Below, piece after piece: positions 30,949 to 64,000 of a DNA stretch of 64,000 bases. A model generated the notes under the pieces. It was not told the origin of the DNA. It saw nothing but the letters and a program-made list of their open reading frames with translations, and ran no database searches. How positions within the stretch are numbered: the first letter of the stretch is position 1; the number at the start of each line of letters is the position of its first letter. The stretch comes from a virus. Location of the stretch: IMG/VR virus record IMGVR_UViG_3300045391_004889, positions 43,986 through 107,985 of that record; one strand, 5' to 3'. A program made the translations under genes and the position numbers.

Positions 30949-32232
30949 CTAGCTGGCGCCGAGCGCCGTGAGGAACGTACGCGCCACAGCCTTGGGCGCG
31001 TGCTTGGTGGCGAGAACGGTGCGGTTGCGCTGGGCGATCGTACGGCGCTGCGCGGTGTTGAGGGTGAGGATCTCCTCCACCGCCTCCCCGATGCCCTCCA
31101 GAACCTCGTGCCATGCCGGCTGGTTGGCCAGCTTCGACTCACCGGGCCAGGACGGCACGGACTCGAGAGCGCGACCCTCGAAGTCGTCGCTCCACATGGA
31201 GCTCACCGACACCTGCATGCAGCCGGCATCGATGGCCTCGAACTGGGAGTACTCCATGCCGTCCGAGAACTCGGAGGCGGTGAGATCCACGTGCACGTCC
31301 AGGTTGCGGCAGGCGTCGAAGCCCGACTCATAGCCACCCTTGTACTCGATCTGGGTGCCGCCAGGCGCGGTGACCTCCCAGAGGTACGGCCGGATGACGT
31401 CACCACCGGTCTCCGTACGCTCACCGGGCTTGATCACCCCGTGACGGATACCGGGAAGCGACAGCGGCTTGCCCAGCACCATCGCCTCGAAGGTCTTGTA
31501 CGTGGCGGACGCGGCGAGGCTGAGAGAGGAGGCACCCCAGAGCTGGACGCGATCCGCGGACGGCATCAGGTCGAGCGCCGCCGCCATACCGAGCGCGTGG
31601 TGACCCTTGGTGGTGATGTACCGCCCGGTGATGCCCACCACGTCGTTCGTCGCGTGACCGGCCAGCAGGTGAGAGTCCGGCTCCGTCTGCATCCGGTACG
31701 GCAGCGGCGACACCGTGAAGTCCACGTCCGGCCAGAGGTGACGGGACAGGTTGGGCGACGTCGGGGAGTGCGTCACCGCCGTGCCGAGGAAGTTCGGCCG
31801 CGTGAGGAGGTCCTTCACGTATGGCACCTCGCTCGGCGGGTAGTTGTTCCCGTGGAGCGCGAAGATGAACGGCGTCTGAGTGGCGGCGAGAACGTTGAGG
31901 TACTCCGGCGTGTCGGGGTCGAGGTAGCTCTTCCCCTTCGCCGCCTCCTTGTCCTGCATCACCGTGCGCACGTCGGTGAGAACGATGCGGTCGTACTGAT
32001 CCAGCACGTAGCCGGCGTCCCGAAGACGGCCCACCACGTCGGGTGACCGGCCCCACCAGCGGATGCCCGGTCGCATGTTGCCCTCGCCCCAGACGGAGCG
32101 TGCCTTGCCGGACCGGGTGAAGGTCACCACGTCCGCCTCGTGTCCGTTCTCACGGAAGCCGTCGCGCAGGTGATACGCCCAAGCCATCGGGCCGCAGACC
32201 CGCGGCTCCGGTTCGAAGATGGCGATCCTCAT
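30949..32232 (-). CDS. GT-B glycosyltransferase-like protein (probable DNA glycosyltransferase)
   Basis: MRIAIF..GP...L..GF...GHEADVV; GRYITTKGH; DGMEYSQFEAIDAGC. Confidence 0.7.
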   Translation of the reverse strand: MRIAIFEPEPRVCGPMAWAYHLRDGFRENGHEADVVTFTRSGKARSVWGEGNMRPGIRWWGRSPDVVGRLRDAGYVLDQYDRIVLTDVRTVMQDKEAAKGKSYLDPDTPEYLNVLAATQTPFIFALHGNNYPPSEVPYVKDLLTRPNFLGTAVTHSPTSPNLSRHLWPDVDFTVSPLPYRMQTEPDSHLLAGHATNDVVGITGRYITTKGHHALGMAAALDLMPSADRVQLWGASSLSLAASATYKTFEAMVLGKPLSLPGIRHGVIKPGERTETGGDVIRPYLWEVTAPGGTQIEYKGGYESGFDACRNLDVHVDLTASEFSDGMEYSQFEAIDAGCMQVSVSSMWSDDFEGRALESVPSWPGESKLANQPAWHEVLEGIGEAVEEILTLNTAQRRTIAQRNRTVLATKHAPKAVARTFLTALGAS

Positions 32233-43479: not shown

Positions 43480-43554
43480 CTTGTCCTCTCTTCCTGGTCG
43501 TTCCTGGTGCATCGTATCAGCTGCAGACTCAAATGTCCACAAGTTCAACGAGCG

Positions 43555-43628
43555 GTGTCCCTGGTGGGAGTCGAACCCACAACCTCCGCCTTTTGAGGGC
43601 GGCGCCTCTGCCGTTGGGCCACAGGGAC
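43555..43628 (-). tRNA. tRNA-Leu(CAA), short variable loop
   Basis: CCGCC-CTCAAAA-GGCGG; GGTTCGACTCC. Confidence 0.85.
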
Positions 43629-43906: not shown

Positions 43907-43998
43907 GGCGATCTCTCTTCCTGCTTCGCTTCCTGCTTGCCTGCTGAGATCAGGTTACCAGCCTGAGGGTGCTTTGTAAACACCCTCAGGCTGGAACC

Positions 43999-49007: not shown

Positions 49008-49072
49008 CTTGTGGACATCCTGGGGCAGACCTGGTAGGGTCTGCCCCAGGAAGCGTTCAGGAAGGAACGAGG

Positions 49073-49678: not shown

Positions 49679-49884
49679 TGGCCAACGAGGGACAGCGCGC
49701 GTGGAACGAACGCGGGCCGGGGTGGCGGGTCCACAACCACGTCAAGGGAAAGCTGACCCCCAAGCAGCGTGACGAAATCGTCGCACGCTACAGGGAGGGT
49801 GGCGAGGGCAACACCGCGGAGGAGCTCGCGGTGGAGTTCGGCGTCAGCGCAGCCACGGTTCGCGGGATGGGGACCAGGCGATGA
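49675..49884 (+). CDS. HTH DNA-binding protein
   Basis: KLT..Q..EI..RY..AEELAVEFGVSAATV. Confidence 0.7.
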   Translation: MMANEGQRAWNERGPGWRVHNHVKGKLTPKQRDEIVARYREGGEGNTAEELAVEFGVSAATVRGMGTRR

Positions 49885-57879: not shown

Positions 57880-58284
57880 GTGAACGTGACGGTGAGTGCG
57901 GGAAGTCCGCGCGGAATCACGTTGAGAGTCACGTTTCCCGGTGACGACGTGTCGGTCGGGAGACGAAAAGCGAGGCGACGTCGGTGTCGCCGGGAGACGG
58001 AAAGTGAGGCGACGAGCGTGAGCTCGGAAGTTGGCGTGGAATCACAGGGCGAGCCGGGCTTCACGCTCGGGGAGCTGGCCGCCGAGCTGGGTGTGCCGGC
58101 GCTGGAGCTGGTGGGCGCGATGGTCGAGGCGGGTCTGGTGACGGTGGAGTCGTACGCGGATGCGCTGCGGCCAGCTGACGGCGGCGATGGCGTGCTCCTG
58201 GTGCGGGCGAGCCAGGCGGACGTGGTGGCTTGGGCGCGACGGTGGGTGCAGCCGTGCGTGGCTGCGAGCGAGCCTGGTGAGTGA
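57880..58284 (+). CDS. hypothetical protein, start uncertain
   Basis: Coding-like 3' half (TLGELAAELGV). Confidence 0.4.
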   Translation: MNVTVSAGSPRGITLRVTFPGDDVSVGRRKARRRRCRRETESEATSVSSEVGVESQGEPGFTLGELAAELGVPALELVGAMVEAGLVTVESYADALRPADGGDGVLLVRASQADVVAWARRWVQPCVAASEPGE

Positions 58285-58369
58285 GCGGCGTGTGGTGTGT
58301 GCGTGCACGGCGCGCGCAAAAATTTTTGAGTGACCTCTGCCGGCCAGTGGCTGGCTGAGGGCCGGCCGG

Positions 58370-58462
58370 TGGACATTTGGGACAAACGGGACATCTGGGA
58401 GGCGTGGAGGACAGTGGCGACAAGGGGGACACAAGGGTCATGGGCGGACAAATCGGACATCA
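58370..58462. repeat. cluster of (G)GACA short repeats in non-coding DNA
   Basis: 8 GACA cores within ~90 bp. Confidence 0.5.
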
Positions 58463-58646
58463 GGGGCATAGCGGGTCCAGGTGGGTCGAAGTGGAGGTGG
58501 CTCGGTTTTCGGGCAGGCCAGGTCCTGGCGTTCCCTGTACCTGTCCAGGGTACCAGAGCCGGCGTGATATGTAAACAGCAAAACACGTCGAGTTTGATGT
58601 GGACAAGTACAGGCCGGCGTGGTATGCTGGACACAGCAGGACAGCA

Positions 58647-58686
58647 GGGATAACCGGGCCGGCCCAGCGGGGGCCGGCGGAAACCC
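58647..58686 (+). ncRNA. structured RNA motif, copy 1
   Basis: GGGATAACCG-hairpin-CGGAAACCC; ORF-less unit between two promoters. Confidence 0.5.
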
Positions 58687-58776
58687 AGGTCCCGCGGGTG
58701 TGGACAAGCACGTACGCAGCTGGTAAGGTTGTACCAGACAGCACGGAACAGGAACAGGAACAGGAAGGAAACGAAC

Positions 58777-59046
58777 GTGGACGTCACCCTGGAGCTGGAC
58801 GTGATGGGCGCGGACGAGGGTCCGTGGGAGCGCGAGGGCCTGGAGGACCTGGGCACGGTGATGGTCGAGCTCGTGGAACCGAGCGGGCCGGCGGGCGGCA
58901 ACCCCGTGGCCAGGGTCAGCGGCCCCAAGGCGGCCGTGGTGGTCTGGCTGCTGGTCGAGTACGTGGCGCAGGACGACTCCGCGCTGGACGAGGCGATGGG
59001 CCTGCTGCGGCCGGTGGAGGACGGCGGCGCCCGCGTCGCCGGCTAA
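58777..59046 (+). CDS. early cassette gene, acidic hypothetical
   Basis: Own promoter and leader. Confidence 0.65.
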   Translation: MDVTLELDVMGADEGPWEREGLEDLGTVMVELVEPSGPAGGNPVARVSGPKAAVVVWLLVEYVAQDDSALDEAMGLLRPVEDGGARVAG

Positions 59047-59134
59047 AAATCTTGTGGCGGGGTGTGGACACACACCCCGCCACGGGGTAGGATGGTACCA
59101 TCAGGAAGTGCACAGGAACAGGAAGCGAGTGATC

Positions 59135-59395
59135 ATGTCGTACTACGCGCTCGAGGTGGATCTTCCCGTCGAGGACGAGGCCGCGCACGCCGGCCTGCTC
59201 GGCCACAAGCACACGCCGGCCGGCGACGTGGAGGTCGAGGCCACCAGCGCCCAGCTCGGGGAGGTCTGCACGTTCCGCATCCTGGGTGAGATGCCGGCCA
59301 TCCTCACGTTCCTGGCCGGCCTGTGGGAGTCCTACGAGGAGGCGCTGGACGAGCTCGGCAGGGCGCGTGCGGAGGACCGCCTGCAGCTGGCGTGA
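59135..59395 (+). CDS. early cassette gene, hypothetical
   Basis: Own promoter and leader. Confidence 0.65.
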   Translation: MSYYALEVDLPVEDEAAHAGLLGHKHTPAGDVEVEATSAQLGEVCTFRILGEMPAILTFLAGLWESYEEALDELGRARAEDRLQLA

Positions 59396-59487
59396 AAGAT
59401 CTTGGCCGGCGGTGTGGACAAACACCGCCGGCCAGGGTAGGATGGTACCATCAGGAAGTGCAGGAAACCAGGAAGCGAGTGTGGATC

Positions 59488-59664
59488 ATGCAGACGTACA
59501 TCGTCACCGCCAAGGACATCAAGCCCAGCATGCGGCACACCCTGGTGAGCACCACGGTCCAGGCACGCAGCTCCTGGGAGGCCGAGCAGACCGGGTGGAC
59601 GGTCCTGGGCACGCGCCCCGGCACCTGGGTGGTGGAGATCGTCTCCGTCGAGCTCGCCGCCTGA
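59488..59664 (+). CDS. early cassette gene, hypothetical
   Basis: Own promoter and leader. Confidence 0.65.
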   Translation: MQTYIVTAKDIKPSMRHTLVSTTVQARSSWEAEQTGWTVLGTRPGTWVVEIVSVELAA

Positions 59665-59752
59665 AAGATCTTGTGGGTGGGTGTGGACAACCGCACCCAC
59701 CCAGGGTATGATGGTACCATCAGGAAGTGCAGGACAGGAAGGAACAGGAATC

Positions 59753-59929
59753 ATGTCCACCATCGTGCCCGTCTCCGCGCTCTACACCCGTCTCGTCGCC
59801 GCCACGGCCGCCCAGGTGGCAGCGTGTCGCAACTGTCGCACGCTCCCCACCGGCCAGCACTGTCTCTCGCACACGTGCCTCGACTGTGGCCGCCTCGCGC
59901 ACCCGCACAGCCAGCCCTGCCAGCGCTAG
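59753..59929 (+). CDS. early cassette gene, Cys/His-rich
   Basis: CRNC..HC..HTCLDC..H. Confidence 0.6.
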   Translation: MSTIVPVSALYTRLVAATAAQVAACRNCRTLPTGQHCLSHTCLDCGRLAHPHSQPCQR

Positions 59930-60058
59930 CAGGCAGGCAGCCGCCGGCCTCTCACGAGGCCGGCCGGCGACGAGAGTGTCCACGTAAACATGTGGACATT
60001 GTCACCGCCGCAGGGTATGATGGTACCAACAGCAGGACAGGAAGAGAGAAGGAAGACC

Positions 60059-60367
60059 ATGGACCTCGCCACCGCCATCCGCCTCGTCGTCGAGGACGTC
60101 CGTCAGAGCTACCCGCAGATGTCCGAGCCGGCCGCCATCGAGCACGCCAGGGACAGCGTGGGCGTGGCCGAGCTGAACTGGGACGAGCCCAACGCCGCCG
60201 CGTGGCAGCTGGTGCTGGAGGCCCACGTGGGCGAGCTGGTGCTGAGCGTGGCCGGCCTGGTGGACGCCACCCTCGACGAGTCGGACGTGTGGGTGTCCAC
60301 CGACGGGGCACACGCCACCATCGACGGCATGCCGGCGCTGCAGTGGCTGGACGCCGTCTTCTGCTAG
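60059..60367 (+). CDS. early cassette gene, acidic hypothetical
   Basis: Own promoter and leader. Confidence 0.65.
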   Translation: MDLATAIRLVVEDVRQSYPQMSEPAAIEHARDSVGVAELNWDEPNAAAWQLVLEAHVGELVLSVAGLVDATLDESDVWVSTDGAHATIDGMPALQWLDAVFC

Positions 60368-60460
60368 GACGTCTGGTCAGGCTCGTCCGCGATTGTTGTG
60401 GACAATCGCGGGCGGGCCTGGTAAGATGGTACCAACAGCGGGACAGGAAGGAACCAGGAA

Positions 60461-60706
60461 ATGGAACGCAAGATCACGCTCATGCAGCACACGCCGAACA
60501 ACCCCACGCAGGTGGAGGGCGGCGAGCTCGTCAAGCTGATCGGCGAGAAGCTGGGCGAGAACTGGGGTGCCGTCAAGCTCGGCAGGGCGTGGTGCTTCAT
60601 GAAGGACGGCCAGCCGGCCGGCCAGTCCACGCGCACCTTCTGGAGGGCGGTTGCGGACGTGATGAAGCTGGAGTCGCTCAGCCGCGCCGTCCCGACGAAG
60701 AAGTGA
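60461..60706 (+). CDS. early cassette gene, hypothetical
   Basis: Own promoter and leader. Confidence 0.65.
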   Translation: MERKITLMQHTPNNPTQVEGGELVKLIGEKLGENWGAVKLGRAWCFMKDGQPAGQSTRTFWRAVADVMKLESLSRAVPTKK

Positions 60707-60824
60707 TCGTCTAGCCAGGCTCGCCCACACCTGGAAACTCGTCACATTGGGTGTGGACAAGTGTGGGTGGGCCTGGTAAGATGGTAACATCAAGCAGGAA
60801 CAAGGAACAGGAAGAAGGAAGATC

Positions 60825-61916
60825 ATGAACCTCGGAAACCTGAAGGCCGGCAAGACCACCACCGTCGAGGGCCTGGACATCACCAAGGGTGACGGCCACT
60901 ACGACCTCGGGTACAGCGGCGAGGCGTGGACGCTGACCTACGACAAGGACGAGAAGGCCTGGGTGCTCGCCCGCGGCAACGGACACACGATCACGTTCAA
61001 GGACGCCACCGCGAAGACCATCGTCTTCACCGTCCTGGACACCATCAAGGCCATCCTCGCCGCCGACGAGCAGGCGGAGGCCGAGGAGGCGGAGAAGCCG
61101 GCGGAGACGGACGAGGAGAAGGCCGCCCGCAAGCGGGAGGGCATCCTGGACAAGATCGCCGCCGCGATGAAGATCGCGCAGGACCCGTCGTCCAGTGACG
61201 AGCAGGCGGAGGCGGCCCTGGCTGCCGTCGCTCGCCTCATGGACCGCCACTCGGTGTCCGAGGAGGAGCTGCGACGCCGGAAGGCGACCGAGGCCGGCCT
61301 CGAGCACGGCGACGAGGAGATCGTCGACTGGACCTACCCGATCAACGTCCAGGGTGGTCACGCTCCCCACCGCGTCGCCGCCTTCGCCAGCGTCGTCACC
61401 GCCATGGGTGCCCGGTGCTTCTACCTCCACCACAAGGTGAAGGGTGCCGGCTACAAGGCGGACACGATGGTCCTCCGCGTCTTCGCCCAGCAGTCGATCA
61501 TCGACAACCTGAAGGCGTTCCTGCCGGTGGTCGAGCTGCAGATGGAGCGCCTCGGGGACGAGGTGTCCCGGAAGAAGTCGCGGGAGGCGAGGGAGGCCGG
61601 CGGTCACCACTCGGGCCCGGGATGCCACGCCCGGCGGGGGTTCATGCGGGGCTTCGGCGCCGGCATCGCGTTCCGTATCACCGAGGGACGTGAGGAGATG
61701 GAGACGGAGGACGGCACGGGCTCCACGGCCCTCGTGCTCCGCGACAGGGCCACGGTGCTGGACCAATACATGGCCGAGAACCACGGCAACCTGAAGAGCA
61801 CCAAGGCGCAGAAGTACGACGACGCCGCCTACCGGCAGGGCCACGCCGCCGGCGTCGCCTTCGCCTCGCCCCAGGTCGCCACGGAGCCGGCGGCCAAGGT
61901 CCTGCAGGACGCCTGA
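60825..61916 (+). CDS. DUF2786-domain protein
   Basis: ILDKIAAAMKIAQDP.....AEAALAAVARLMDRH; C-terminal AAYRQGHAAG. Confidence 0.75.
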   Translation: MNLGNLKAGKTTTVEGLDITKGDGHYDLGYSGEAWTLTYDKDEKAWVLARGNGHTITFKDATAKTIVFTVLDTIKAILAADEQAEAEEAEKPAETDEEKAARKREGILDKIAAAMKIAQDPSSSDEQAEAALAAVARLMDRHSVSEEELRRRKATEAGLEHGDEEIVDWTYPINVQGGHAPHRVAAFASVVTAMGARCFYLHHKVKGAGYKADTMVLRVFAQQSIIDNLKAFLPVVELQMERLGDEVSRKKSREAREAGGHHSGPGCHARRGFMRGFGAGIAFRITEGREEMETEDGTGSTALVLRDRATVLDQYMAENHGNLKSTKAQKYDDAAYRQGHAAGVAFASPQVATEPAAKVLQDA

Positions 61917-61995
61917 GAACGATCACCGCCCGGGTGTGGACAACGCACCCGGGCGGTGGTATGCTGTACCCAGGAACAGGAACTGAGGAGGAAGC

Positions 61996-62130
61996 ATGGA
62001 CGAGAACGAGTGCCAGCTCTGTGGCGAGGGCAACGACGAGCTTGATCCACTCGGCATGTTCCGCCGGGACGGCGAGACGATCATCGCGCACGGGCAGTGC
62101 GGCGTGGACGAGGGTCTCGAGCTCGCCTGA
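61996..62130 (+). CDS. 44-aa early cassette gene, absent from the ORF track
   Basis: GAGGAGG RBS; CQLC..H..C; ends at the module junction. Confidence 0.6.
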   Translation: MDENECQLCGEGNDELDPLGMFRRDGETIIAHGQCGVDEGLELA

Positions 62131-62197
62131 AAGATCTTACTGCCGGGTGTGGACAACCGCACCCGGCAGCTGGTAAGATGGTACCATCAGCCAGGGA

Positions 62198-62235
62198 GGG
62201 ATAACCGCCACCGGCGCATCGCCGGACGGAAACCC
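62198..62235 (+). ncRNA. structured RNA motif, copy 2 (5' leader)
   Basis: GGGATAACCG-hairpin-CGGAAACCC. Confidence 0.5.
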
Positions 62236-62282
62236 GGAAGCTGATCACCGCAGGAACAGGAAGCGAACTGAGGAGCAAGATC

Positions 62283-62504
62283 ATGGCTGTCACCATCGCA
62301 CGCGTGGAGAAGGACTTCGTCGAGGGCGAGACGGTTCGCCACCTGGGCACTCAGCGCCTGGCCATCGTCGTCGGGGAGCGGGTGCTCACCGAGCGGGTGA
62401 TCGGCCGGCTCGGAATGACCACGCACCGCCTGGACGTGAAGATGCACGGGGACACCCGGGTGCGCACCTTCCACGCGAACCTGTTCGAGCCGCTCGCCGG
62501 CTAG
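62283..62504 (+). CDS. early cassette gene, SH3-like
   Basis: FVEGETVRH..IVVG. Confidence 0.6.
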   Translation: MAVTIARVEKDFVEGETVRHLGTQRLAIVVGERVLTERVIGRLGMTTHRLDVKMHGDTRVRTFHANLFEPLAG

Positions 62505-62589
62505 AAGATCTTGCCGGCGGGTGTGGACAACACACCCGCCGGCTGGTAAGGTAGTACCAAGCAGGAAACAGGAAGAGAGAAGGAAGACC

Positions 62590-63150
62590 ATGATCGTCCG
62601 CAGCCGCACCCGCAACGTCCTCGTGAACACGCTCATCGTGGCCCTCACGGCCGCCTCGTTCGTCGCCGGCCTCGACATGTACCACGCCATCAAGAGCCTG
62701 CACCACAGCGCCCCCGTGGCCGCCACGGCGCCGGCCAAGCCGGCCCTCAAGACCGCCGGCTACAACGACGGGTGGATCGACGGCCAGGCGGACCTGGCGG
62801 ACGAGCTCGGCGCCTCGCGTGTACCCAACAACACCGAGTACGCCGCGTGGCTGAAGGCCAACCAGAAGGACGCCTCGTGCCACCTCGCCTGGGACGGCCA
62901 GGTGCGCCCCGTGTACGAGGTCGTCTGCGTCAAGGCCGGCCGCACCCTGCCGGTCGGCTGCACCAGCAGCAAGGTCGCTCAGGCTGACGTGGAGGCCTGC
63001 CTCGCACTGGACTACCGGAACGCTCAGACCGTCAAGAACGCGGACGGCTCGGTGATCTCGAGCCCCGACGGGACGGCTCTCATCGCCGAGTGCCTGAGCC
63101 AGTACAGCGGCCAGGAGCTCCACAACTGCCTGAACCAGCCGGTTCTCTGA
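62590..63150 (+). CDS. early cassette gene, secreted or membrane-anchored Cys-containing protein
   Basis: N-terminal signal/TM segment, 6 Cys. Confidence 0.65.
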   Translation: MIVRSRTRNVLVNTLIVALTAASFVAGLDMYHAIKSLHHSAPVAATAPAKPALKTAGYNDGWIDGQADLADELGASRVPNNTEYAAWLKANQKDASCHLAWDGQVRPVYEVVCVKAGRTLPVGCTSSKVAQADVEACLALDYRNAQTVKNADGSVISSPDGTALIAECLSQYSGQELHNCLNQPVL

Positions 63151-63245
63151 AAGATCTTGGCCGAGGATGTGGACATCTGCGCCCTCGGCTGGTAAGCTTG
63201 ACCTCAGCAGCAAGGAACCAGGAACCAAGGAAGCGAGTGATCAAC

Positions 63246-63404
63246 GTGGGTACCTACCTCGTCATCAACAAGGACGGCTCGGTTCGGGGCACGGCCACAA
63301 TGCTGGACTCCATGGCCAAGCGACTCGAGGACCAGGGCTGCCACCTGATCCCCCAGGCCGAGGTCCCCTCGGTCAAGATCACCTTCGGCCGCTCGACCCG
63401 CTAA
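63246..63404 (+). CDS. early cassette gene, hypothetical
   Basis: Own promoter and leader. Confidence 0.55.
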   Translation: MGTYLVINKDGSVRGTATMLDSMAKRLEDQGCHLIPQAEVPSVKITFGRSTR

Positions 63405-63492
63405 GAATCTTGGCCCCGGGTGTGGACAAACACCCGGGGCCAAGGTAAGGTAGTACTACCAAGCAGGAACAGGAACAGGAAGAAGGAAGATC

Positions 63493-63888
63493 ATGACCAT
63501 CGACATCTTCGCGAAGGCCCAGGAGCGGATCGACTCCGAGGCTGAGGCCGCCCGCCGCGTTCTCAAGGACAGCCAGGTCGCCATGATCAAGTGCATGGAG
63601 GGTGGCTACGCCCTTCAGACCAGCAGCGTCGAGTCGATCTTCCTGCAGGAGCACCTCGTGCGGGCGTGGAACCAGGTGCAGGCCCTCAGCCTTACCTCCA
63701 CCGACAAGGAGGAGCTGAAGGCCCGCCTCAGCACCTGGGTGGAGGACGCTACGGAGCAGGTGATGGCCCCGGGTAGGAGCCAGAGCACCTCGTTCGTCCG
63801 TACCGAGCAGATGGCACAGGAGACGGAGGCACTCAAGAGCACGGCACGCTCGGTCTCCTACATCGTCAGGATGCTCGCCTCGGCCTGA
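63493..63888 (+). CDS. early cassette gene, helical hypothetical
   Basis: Own promoter and leader. Confidence 0.65.
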   Translation: MTIDIFAKAQERIDSEAEAARRVLKDSQVAMIKCMEGGYALQTSSVESIFLQEHLVRAWNQVQALSLTSTDKEELKARLSTWVEDATEQVMAPGRSQSTSFVRTEQMAQETEALKSTARSVSYIVRMLASA

Positions 63889-63896
63889 TGGCAGGC

Positions 63897-63978
63897 AGGC
63901 TCGGCTCCACTCGCAGGGCGAGGGAGCCGAGCCACTCGGTTGAGCACGCGTGGTGGGTGGAGGCCCACCACGCTTTTG
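63897..63978 (+). terminator. tandem hairpins closing the cassette array
   Basis: GGCTCGGCTCC..GGAGCCGAGCC and GCGTGGTGGG..CCCACCACGC-TTTT. Confidence 0.7.
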
Positions 63979-64000
63979 CTAGGTGACTGAGTGCACCGCG

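Follow-up and report, generated by a model that had tools for sequence, protein, structure and literature searches.

How can small genes be expressed one by one, and exchanged one by one, when each of them carries a promoter whose -35 box is enclosed by a hairpin lying directly behind the preceding gene? This question is raised by an array of gene cassettes in IMG/VR virus record IMGVR_UViG_3300045391_004889 (107,985 base pairs (bp); guanine-plus-cytosine (GC) content 65%), of which we analysed bases 43986-107985. This stretch of 64,000 nucleotides (nt) is referred to as the window, and positions are those of the window unless they are given as genome positions. The answer that we favour is that the joints between the cassettes are probably composite elements, combining a promoter, an RNA hairpin and a recombination linker.

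A reiterated promoter and its covarying hairpins

The array is marked by a promoter-like motif, TGTGGACA-N(14-22)-GGTAnnnT, which matches 15 times in the window where 0.03 matches are expected, the N stretch of the matches being 15 or 16 nt long. Thirteen of the 15 matches, every one on the + strand, fall between 58598 and 63451, in an array of 5.4 kb. A generic sigma-70 scan called nine of the array copies as TGGACA-17/18-TAnnnT (0.3 expected), five of them with a TG before the -10 box; at the level of the consensus, the copies thus look like promoters that HrdB/sigma70 would use, as an earlier note on this DNA had proposed. That note had also counted 13 units of one gene each: the 13 promoters stand, but only 12 of them are followed by a single open reading frame (ORF; 44-363 amino acids), the first promoter (unit 1, 58598) having downstream of it only a structured leader of ~70 nt.

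The joints share a common order of parts, namely a stop codon, the palindrome AAGATCTT (the tract), a GC hairpin, an extended -10 box (T/G-G-G-TAnnnT, often then GGTACC) and a purine-rich CAGGAA leader with a ribosome-binding site. The -35 box (TGTGGACA) forms the loop of the hairpin or the part of the stem next to the loop, and the 3' arm is at the same time the 17-bp spacer of the promoter. The tract directly follows the stop codon (TGA/TAG/TAA-AAGATCTT) in seven of the 11 window joints; its exact sequence occurs in five joints and in no other place of the 108-kb genome. It lies ~50-58 bp 5' of the predicted start, at the place expected for the distal part of a sigma-70 UP element, and its end, AUCUU, often lengthens the stem by pairing with the A/G-G-G-U just before the -10 box.

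All 11 joints between two ORFs fold, with predicted free energies (dG) of -20 to -53 kcal/mol and z scores of -3.2 to -8.8, and at most one in 200 shuffled sequences is equally stable. The -35 box lies in the loop or the innermost stem, with the 3' arm filling the spacer, in nine of the 11 (the exceptions are N/G and V/F, joints being named after the cassettes on their two sides). A hairpin is present wherever a co-directional ORF ends just 5' of the promoter, and is missing from the two promoters at the head of the array (58598 and 58699), upstream of which no ORF ends. Over the eight contigs compared, the -35 box is enclosed by a stem of 10 bp or more in 50 of 56 ORF-ORF joints, and the tract is present in 41 of 56. 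Cassettes were called from their ORFs; calls made by regular expression missed joints with an 18-bp spacer or a variant -10 box.

The stems differ in sequence from one joint to the next while their pairing is kept. In two subsets of joints that share the same register (A2 and A4), 95.1% and 100% of the cells are paired and 9 of 13 and 7 of 13 pairs have changed on both sides; none of 500 shuffles reached the covariation observed in either subset, and slid controls were ~45% paired. A left arm paired with its own right arm obtains a median score of 12.5, versus 6.5 with the arms of other joints. We also built a covariance model of the junction. On the + strand it gives scores of 33-69 bits to the nine canonical joints of the window, on the reverse strand nothing above 24 bits, and it recovers the joints of the relatives G001 and G002 as well. 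In its alignment 95.4% of the cells are paired and 11 of 13 pairs have changed on both sides (the model was trained on one subset and the alignment leans toward it). The axis of the hairpin shifts by ~3 nt relative to the -35 box, and this drift against the -35/-10 frame puts columns out of register, which is why the MAFFT alignments A1 and A3 were left out of the pair counts and only A2, A4 and the covariance-model alignment were used. What the joints conserve is stable hairpin formation in general rather than a three-dimensional motif of fixed shape, and an Rfam search of 58000-64000 returned no credible family.

The imperfections of the stems tell the two strands apart. Using an inverted-repeat finder that accepts Watson-Crick pairs only, and which scores G.T and A.C alike, we counted 35 G.T and two A.C mismatches in 47 unique stems from the eight contigs (p 1e-8), or 21 versus two outside the fixed -35 box. 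The excess of G.T over A.C indicates that the + strand is selected for folding as a single strand. Given this asymmetry and the position just after stop codons, the folded strand is most likely RNA, the simplest reading of the sequences. The stem imperfections compatible with G.U on the sense strand, the pairing kept under sequence change, the stems quoted at 59054, 59403, 60378 and 63410 and the lack of tract or hairpin in some units, all of which the earlier note had described, are therefore confirmed.

Read from left to right on the + strand, the array begins behind a canonical U-tract terminator (58296..58328), which closes the upstream operon and forms the left boundary. Promoter 1 (58598..58628; TGTGGACA-15-GGTATGCT) has neither hairpin nor ORF and is followed by the leader RNA element. 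Promoter 2 (58699..58729), which also lacks an enclosing hairpin, precedes cassette ORF U (58777..59046; 89 amino acids, GTG start), present in this genome only. Joint U/C (59044..59093; dG -36.2, z -8.4) consists of the stop, AAAATCTT, a 13-bp stem with a GACA loop and the -10 box TAGGAT, and leads to ORF C (59135..59395; 86 amino acids). The next joint, C/M (59393..59443; z -8.8), has TGA-AAGATCTT, a 13-bp stem, the loop GGACAA and again TAGGAT, in front of ORF M (59488..59664; 58 amino acids). Joint M/V (59662..59712) has the tract and a 13-bp stem with one U.G pair, and its orthologue in G002 carries a swap of C.G to G.C. It is followed by the Cys-rich ORF V (59753..59929; 58 amino acids), again restricted to this genome.

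The tract is absent from the two joints on either side of ORF F (60059..60367; 102 amino acids). V/F (59927..60021; dG -53, z -6.3) has one hairpin after the stop and then a second (TGTCCACG/TGTGGACA) that holds the -35 box within its 3' arm, and F/N (60365..60427; z -7.0) has a stem of 19-21 bp with the -35 box at the loop. ORF N (60461..60706; 81 amino acids) is separated from ORF G by joint N/G (60704..60782, hairpin 60714-60777; dG -41.4, z -5.1), in which an outer stem of 17 bp surrounds a large branched loop with the -35 box. ORF G (60825..61916; 363 amino acids) matches DUF2786 and phrog_421 and is the sole cassette with a Pfam family match; G and J are the only two of the 12 cassette ORFs that match any family, both of unknown function.

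Joint G/A (61914..61965; z -8.1) combines a degenerate tract with a stem of 13-17 bp and leads to ORF A (61996..62130; 44 amino acids), whose CxxC...C pattern is zinc-ribbon-like. Then come joint A/K (62128..62179), with the tract, a 13-bp stem including one U.G pair and an 18-bp spacer, ORF K (62283..62504; 73 amino acids) and joint K/D (62502..62552), which has TAG-AAGATCTT and a 13-bp stem and is the top match of the covariance model (68.6 bits). ORF D (62590..63150; 186 amino acids) is Cys-rich and has a hydrophobic N-terminal segment. The weakest stem is found, together with the tract, in joint D/B (63148..63198; z -3.2), the orthologues of which in G002 and L251 show compensated changes. 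ORF B (63246..63404) has 52 amino acids if it starts at GTG 63246, an in-frame GTG at 63237 being also possible. The last joint, B/J (63402..63451; z -8.5), has TAA-GAATCTT, a stem of 15-17 bp and the loop GGACAA, and the last ORF, J (63493..63888; 131 amino acids), matches phrog_36273. Past it lie a tail-less hairpin without a promoter (63898..63933) and a canonical terminator with an 11-bp stem and TTTT (63948..63977), which forms the right boundary and lies within a 69-bp repeat found at both ends of the record.

Cassette turnover among relatives

A pattern scan of IMG/VR genomes identified two relatives with the same grammar, G001 (107,550 bp, complete) and G002 (a 45.8-kb fragment), and at least five short metagenome contigs, picked by motif counts, follow it too; further metagenome relatives probably exist. 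In IMG/VR, the three-part pattern retrieved no relatives besides G001 and G002, and the loose pattern AAGATCTT-N-TGTGGACA gave, among the matches listed, chance single hits only.

The cassette orders are U-C-M-V-F-N-G-A-K-D-B-J in the window, C-M-F-I-G-A-K-T-I-D-B-J in G002, G-A-L-K-D-B-J in L251, E-A-Q-B-C-H-R-S-D-F-O-G-P-L in G001, A-H-I-B-C-N-D-F in L225, E-A-H-B-C in L232 and E-A-H-I in L275. They form two synteny groups. Within a group, the contigs differ by insertions or deletions (indels) of single cassettes; between the groups, six common families are reordered (C-F-G-A-D-B versus A-B-C-D-F-G), for which at least two to three moves are needed. Outside the array, G000 and G001 are collinear genome-wide (tblastx).

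Crossovers were mapped for four indels. All of them lie within joints, in one of three conserved blocks (the tract, the -10/+1 block and the CAGGAA leader), and none lies inside a stem. The T-I indel has its crossover at the AAGATCTT tract: joint K/D of L251 matches K/T of G002 only up to the tract, and I/D of G002 from the tract on. The crossover of the L cassette indel falls in the CAGGAACAGGAA leader, and those of the I cassette (L225 versus L232) and the V cassette (window versus G002) in the -10/+1 block, GGTAnnnTGGTACCA. Stems, for their part, change by compensated swaps between orthologous hairpins, e.g. GTGGCTGGG/CCCAGCCA versus GTGGGTGGG/CCCACCCA. The earlier suggestion that the joints supply homology for the gain, loss and shuffling of cassettes, with breakpoints inside them when related phages are compared, is borne out by these single-cassette indels and reorderings. 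Cassette A is the only one found in all eight contigs (47-91% identity) and is possibly the only member whose function is indispensable.

The 69 bp repeated at both ends of the record indicate that the assembly is circular. The genome encodes a tail tube, a tape measure, a family-A DNA polymerase (PolA), a primase-helicase, an SNF2 helicase and other phage proteins, and its tail genes are of the siphovirus type. The nearest homologues of PolA, with only ~42% identity, are those of Arthrobacter, Microbacterium and Gordonia phages, which points to an uncultured phage whose high-GC host is probably actinobacterial. Neither a phage-type RNA polymerase nor a sigma region 2 was found in the genome. 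When the array was searched at the nucleotide level, in near and distant modes, against INPHARED (50,697 deposited phage genomes), there were zero matches, and tblastn of the 363-amino-acid cassette G protein against deposited phages gave none either, so that there is no cultured relative for comparison. The array is probably a hyperplastic, and probably early, region of a lytic siphovirus-like phage, with 12 putative transcription units of one gene each, most of which belong to no known family.

Candidate mechanisms and known systems

How would such joints work? If they are composites of promoter, RNA hairpin and recombination linker, the host RNA polymerase with its primary sigma factor would initiate at each joint, and the hairpin would form in the RNA of the upstream gene, where it would attenuate or terminate read-through ~7-9 nt past the stem, within the next -10 box. 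A polymerase sitting on the overlapping promoter may act as a roadblock and compensate for the absent U-tract, and messages may also be shielded at their 3' end by the hairpin. General recombination would find short homologies in the three conserved blocks and would in this way move whole self-expressing cassettes.

Several points weigh against this proposal: (i), no U-tract stands behind any joint hairpin, the 3' flank being GGTAnnnT; a scan for U-tract terminators passes only 58296-58328 and 63948-63977 on the + strand, both of which flank the array, and its only match in a joint is the hairpin at 59054-59083, on the minus strand. (ii), hairpins without a U-tract do not stop purified mycobacterial RNA polymerase, even when NusA and NusG are present (PMC3993855). 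(iii), the tail-less hairpin of the last gene is backed by a canonical terminator, and this arrangement, together with the canonical terminators at the array ends, suggests that tail-less hairpins alone are leaky. (iv), the asymmetry between G.T and A.C fits a single-stranded DNA of the + strand equally well. (v), the cassette families are blastp clusters of short proteins with 29-91% identity, and the relatives are all metagenomic contigs, so that the indels are unpolarised and undated. The missing U-tract could be reconciled with the proposal either if attenuation were aided by a promoter-bound polymerase or if the hairpins were mainly 3'-end protectors or processing sites.

The latter idea can be taken further. 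An unlikely explanation, but one that deserves serious attention, is that the hairpins do not terminate at all, that transcription runs through the array in long units, starting for instance at promoter 1, and that the hairpins are only processing or stability elements. The joint hairpins without U-tracts inside an array bounded by canonical terminators, and the need of mycobacterial RNA polymerase for a U-tract (PMC3993855), are in its favour, and the conserved structured RNA right behind the first promoter in seven contigs could act as an antitermination site of the put/nut kind. Processing might follow one of two routes: RNase III would cleave in the stems, or RNase E would cut single-stranded AAGAU/CUU (the slash marks the cut), after which a hairpin would protect the 5' or 3' end of each single-gene message. 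Mycobacterial RNase E cuts immediately 5' of cytidines (PMC10641625), and the tract, with its single C between A and U, would suit it. However, every cassette has kept a near-consensus promoter, which would be needless with one long transcript; the antitermination argument is drawn from the position of the element alone, which has no Rfam match, and the RNase argument from sequence resemblance only.

Doubtful, in our opinion, is a two-tier device adapted to a high-GC host, in which termination depends on a roadblock and an antiterminated polymerase from promoter 1 reads through the full array. Tail-less hairpins would then terminate only through a polymerase parked on the overlapping strong promoter, while the polymerase from promoter 1, having transcribed the GGAUAACC-hairpin-GGAAACC RNA, would turn resistant and read the entire array. 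One region would give single-gene and full-length expression, and its joints would double as recombination linkers. An RNA that makes polymerase resistant to termination is known from put of HK022 and nut of lambda.

We consider it improbable that the inverted repeats work as duplex DNA, being operators or cruciforms through which a regulator of phage or host shuts off the early promoters. The repeats lie across the -35 box and the spacer, where an operator would be ideally placed, TGT-GG-ACA is a partial palindrome, the phage encodes a helix-turn-helix protein resembling sigma-70 region 4, and a cluster of GGACA repeats lies just 5' of the array; moreover, the repressor of phage phiC31 acts at conserved inverted repeats. 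Here, however, the arm sequences vary among joints and only the pairing is preserved, the symmetry axis drifts against the -35 box, the promoters at the head of the array have no repeat, and the mismatches are of the G.T and not of the A.C type, a bias for which there would be no selection in duplex DNA.

The earlier note spoke of an integron-like system. Such a reading, with hairpins that fold from single strands into recombination sites of the attC kind, a recombinase of their own that cuts them, and cassettes that are excised and inserted as circles, is scarcely credible: single-gene cassettes bounded by sites that vary in sequence, keep their structure and fold on one strand do have a superficial likeness to attC, but no tyrosine or serine recombinase (integrase, resolvase; PF00589, PF00239) was found in the complete genome, whereas control genomes were positive, each cassette has its own promoter, the near-perfect stems lack the extrahelical bases of the conserved attC bulges, and the four mapped crossovers use three blocks instead of one core site and never a stem. 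The crossovers in three blocks and the lack of an integrase or resolvase argue instead for homologous shuffling like that of the promoter-early-stem-loop (PeSL) cassettes of T4-type phages, in line with the composite promoter, hairpin and linker that we favour.

PeSL cassettes were described by Arbiol et al. 2010 (PMC2839356) and Comeau et al. 2014 (PMC4122927); their terminator activity and mini-circles were demonstrated (PMC2839356, PMC4122927), and general homologous recombination between the reiterated linkers was proposed (PMC2839356). They resemble the present array in that a hyperplastic region has repeated early promoters of the sigma-70 type, each joined to a GC stem-loop and an A/T-rich patch and placed between small genes without known function, and in that relatives differ by insertion, deletion or replacement of cassettes, with crossovers within the motif. 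The traits of a PeSL found here are a promoter consensus (as a match only), a stem-loop at the joint, a hyperplastic region of small genes and breakpoints within the motif. There are also clear differences. The PeSL stem-loop stands beside the promoter, whereas in the array the hairpin takes in the -35 box and its 3' arm doubles as the spacer; the stems of PeSLs are conserved to a fair degree (GGGG...CCCC), those of the array covary freely; and the A/T patch is represented here by a fixed palindrome, AAGATCTT, 5' of the stem. Terminator activity and mini-circles are established for PeSLs, while the array is known from its sequence alone. Membership by descent was rejected: the 65% GC siphovirus-like phage is unrelated to T4-like myoviruses, as seen from its siphovirus-type tail genes and its PolA nearest to those of Arthrobacter, Microbacterium and Gordonia phages, and the motif sequences are unrelated.

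A second point of comparison is provided by promoter-coupled terminators, which are widespread in bacteria and in which stem-loop DNA can serve as the -35 element (Fletcher et al. 2026, bioRxiv 10.64898/2026.08.19.745784). The coupled promoter raises termination efficiency, so that its inactivation results in more read-through; such terminators were described in Acinetobacter, E. coli, Bacillus and other bacteria, and the preprint makes no mention of phages, Actinobacteria, Streptomyces or Mycobacterium (bioRxiv 10.64898/2026.08.19.745784). As in the array, the terminator overlaps the next promoter between tandem genes and stem-loop DNA is the -35 element (50 of 56 joints here), termination is predicted ~10 bp before the next start (here by geometry only), and a promoter-bound polymerase could strengthen a weak terminator. 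Unlike the joints, these terminators carry a T-tract that separates the stem from the -10 box, and they are scattered chromosomal sites, whereas the joints form a reiterated, recombining phage family.

The actinophages offer a third comparison. Ingham et al., in 1995, are said to have found that the early region of the Streptomyces phage phiC31 combines several early promoters with inverted repeats of conserved sequence and with Rho-independent terminators that lack a poly-U tail. Both systems would share an actinophage early region in which promoters recur many times and hairpin terminators lacking a tail stand between small genes. In phiC31, however, the inverted repeats are reportedly conserved in sequence and bound by the repressor and the early promoters are reportedly not sigma-70-like, and for the array neither nucleotide nor protein searches revealed a similar phage in INPHARED.

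The earlier claim of novelty was overstated, since composite PeSL cassettes and promoter-coupled terminators with stem-loop DNA as the -35 element had already been described; a literature search, which was not exhaustive, found no such array described in actinobacterial phages. The array works like PeSLs and promoter-coupled terminators and belongs to neither by descent. Distinct to it are the -35-in-hairpin geometry, the freely covarying stems, the missing U-tract, the fixed palindromic tract and the phage lineage. The idea behind PeSLs, that self-expressing and transcriptionally insulated cassettes recombine at regulatory linkers, thus reaches an unrelated and uncultured lineage of phages of high-GC hosts, beyond the T4-like phages of Gram-negative bacteria and with mapped crossover points. 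The array also provides ~50 natural covarying examples of a terminator-like hairpin fused to the -35 box and spacer of the next promoter without a U-tract. They constitute a test bed for the disputed ability of actinobacterial polymerases to stop at tail-less hairpins, and for the recent proposal that a promoter-bound polymerase boosts the coupled terminator. If active, a joint of 80-90 bp would be a compact part for high-GC synthetic biology, combining insulator, promoter and ribosome-binding site.

Leader RNA and related sites outside the joints

The leader RNA behind promoter 1 has the form GGAUAACC-[variable hairpin]-GGAAACC, that is GG-AUAA-CC, a covarying hairpin and GG-AAA-CC. Copy 1 lies at 58648..58685 on the + strand, and an element directly behind the first promoter of the array is found in seven contigs (the window, L024, L025, L225, L232, L177 and L275). 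Copy 2 (62199..62234, + strand) lies inside the 103-nt leader of cassette K and has no counterpart in the K leaders of G002 and L251. The element has no match in Rfam; a small RNA, a site for protein binding and an antitermination signal of the put/nut type are conceivable roles.

The GGACA cluster, at 58371-58459, has seven copies spaced by 9, 9, 20, 18, 19 and 9 bp and is the only such cluster in the genome. It lies just 5' of the array and 3' of the primase-helicase genes; the G002 version is longer, and G001 has ATGGCCAT-like repeats in the same place. The cluster looks iteron-like and may be an origin or an array of regulator-binding sites. We considered a single protein binding both the cluster and the -35 boxes, an idea that lost weight because G001 keeps the TGTGGACA promoters with a different, ATGGCCAT-like, upstream repeat. 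A helix-turn-helix of the sigma-70 region-4 type (28.4 bits) was detected in an ORF of 146-158 amino acids (genome 28080-28208, outside the window), and a weaker match of this type in a 77-amino-acid ORF (window 49750-49863) behind the promoters 48726/49010; judging from these matches, either protein might bind -35-like boxes.

Promoters of the same type occur elsewhere in the genome, hairpin-free, with a separate hairpin a few bases 5', or in the merged form. The merged form is seen outside the array at genome 31940 and at window 43954-43997, both on the minus strand. The latter comprises a TGA stop, a 14-bp hairpin enclosing a TTTACA -35 box, the -10 box TAACCT and a CAGGAA leader, which indicates that the promoter-in-hairpin design is not bound to the TGGACA box. 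The former belongs to a second mini-array on the minus strand, at genome 31500-32300 (outside the window; L004, L005, L298), where promoters at 32179, 31940 and 31575 precede small genes; the joint at 31940 has a hairpin containing the stop codon and then the merged -35 hairpin. At window 49010-49060, by contrast with these -35 hairpins, promoter 49010 has a 12-bp inverted repeat (CCTGGGGCAGAC...GTCTGCCCCAGG) that flanks the -10 box; its start site would fall in the 3' arm, which gives the repeat the look of a DNA operator rather than of an RNA hairpin. Finally, at window 43511-43600 on the minus strand, a tRNA-like 3' end (GGTTCGACTCCCAC) lies directly 5' of the promoter copy at 43511-43540, which suggests that such promoters also restart transcription past the tRNA region.

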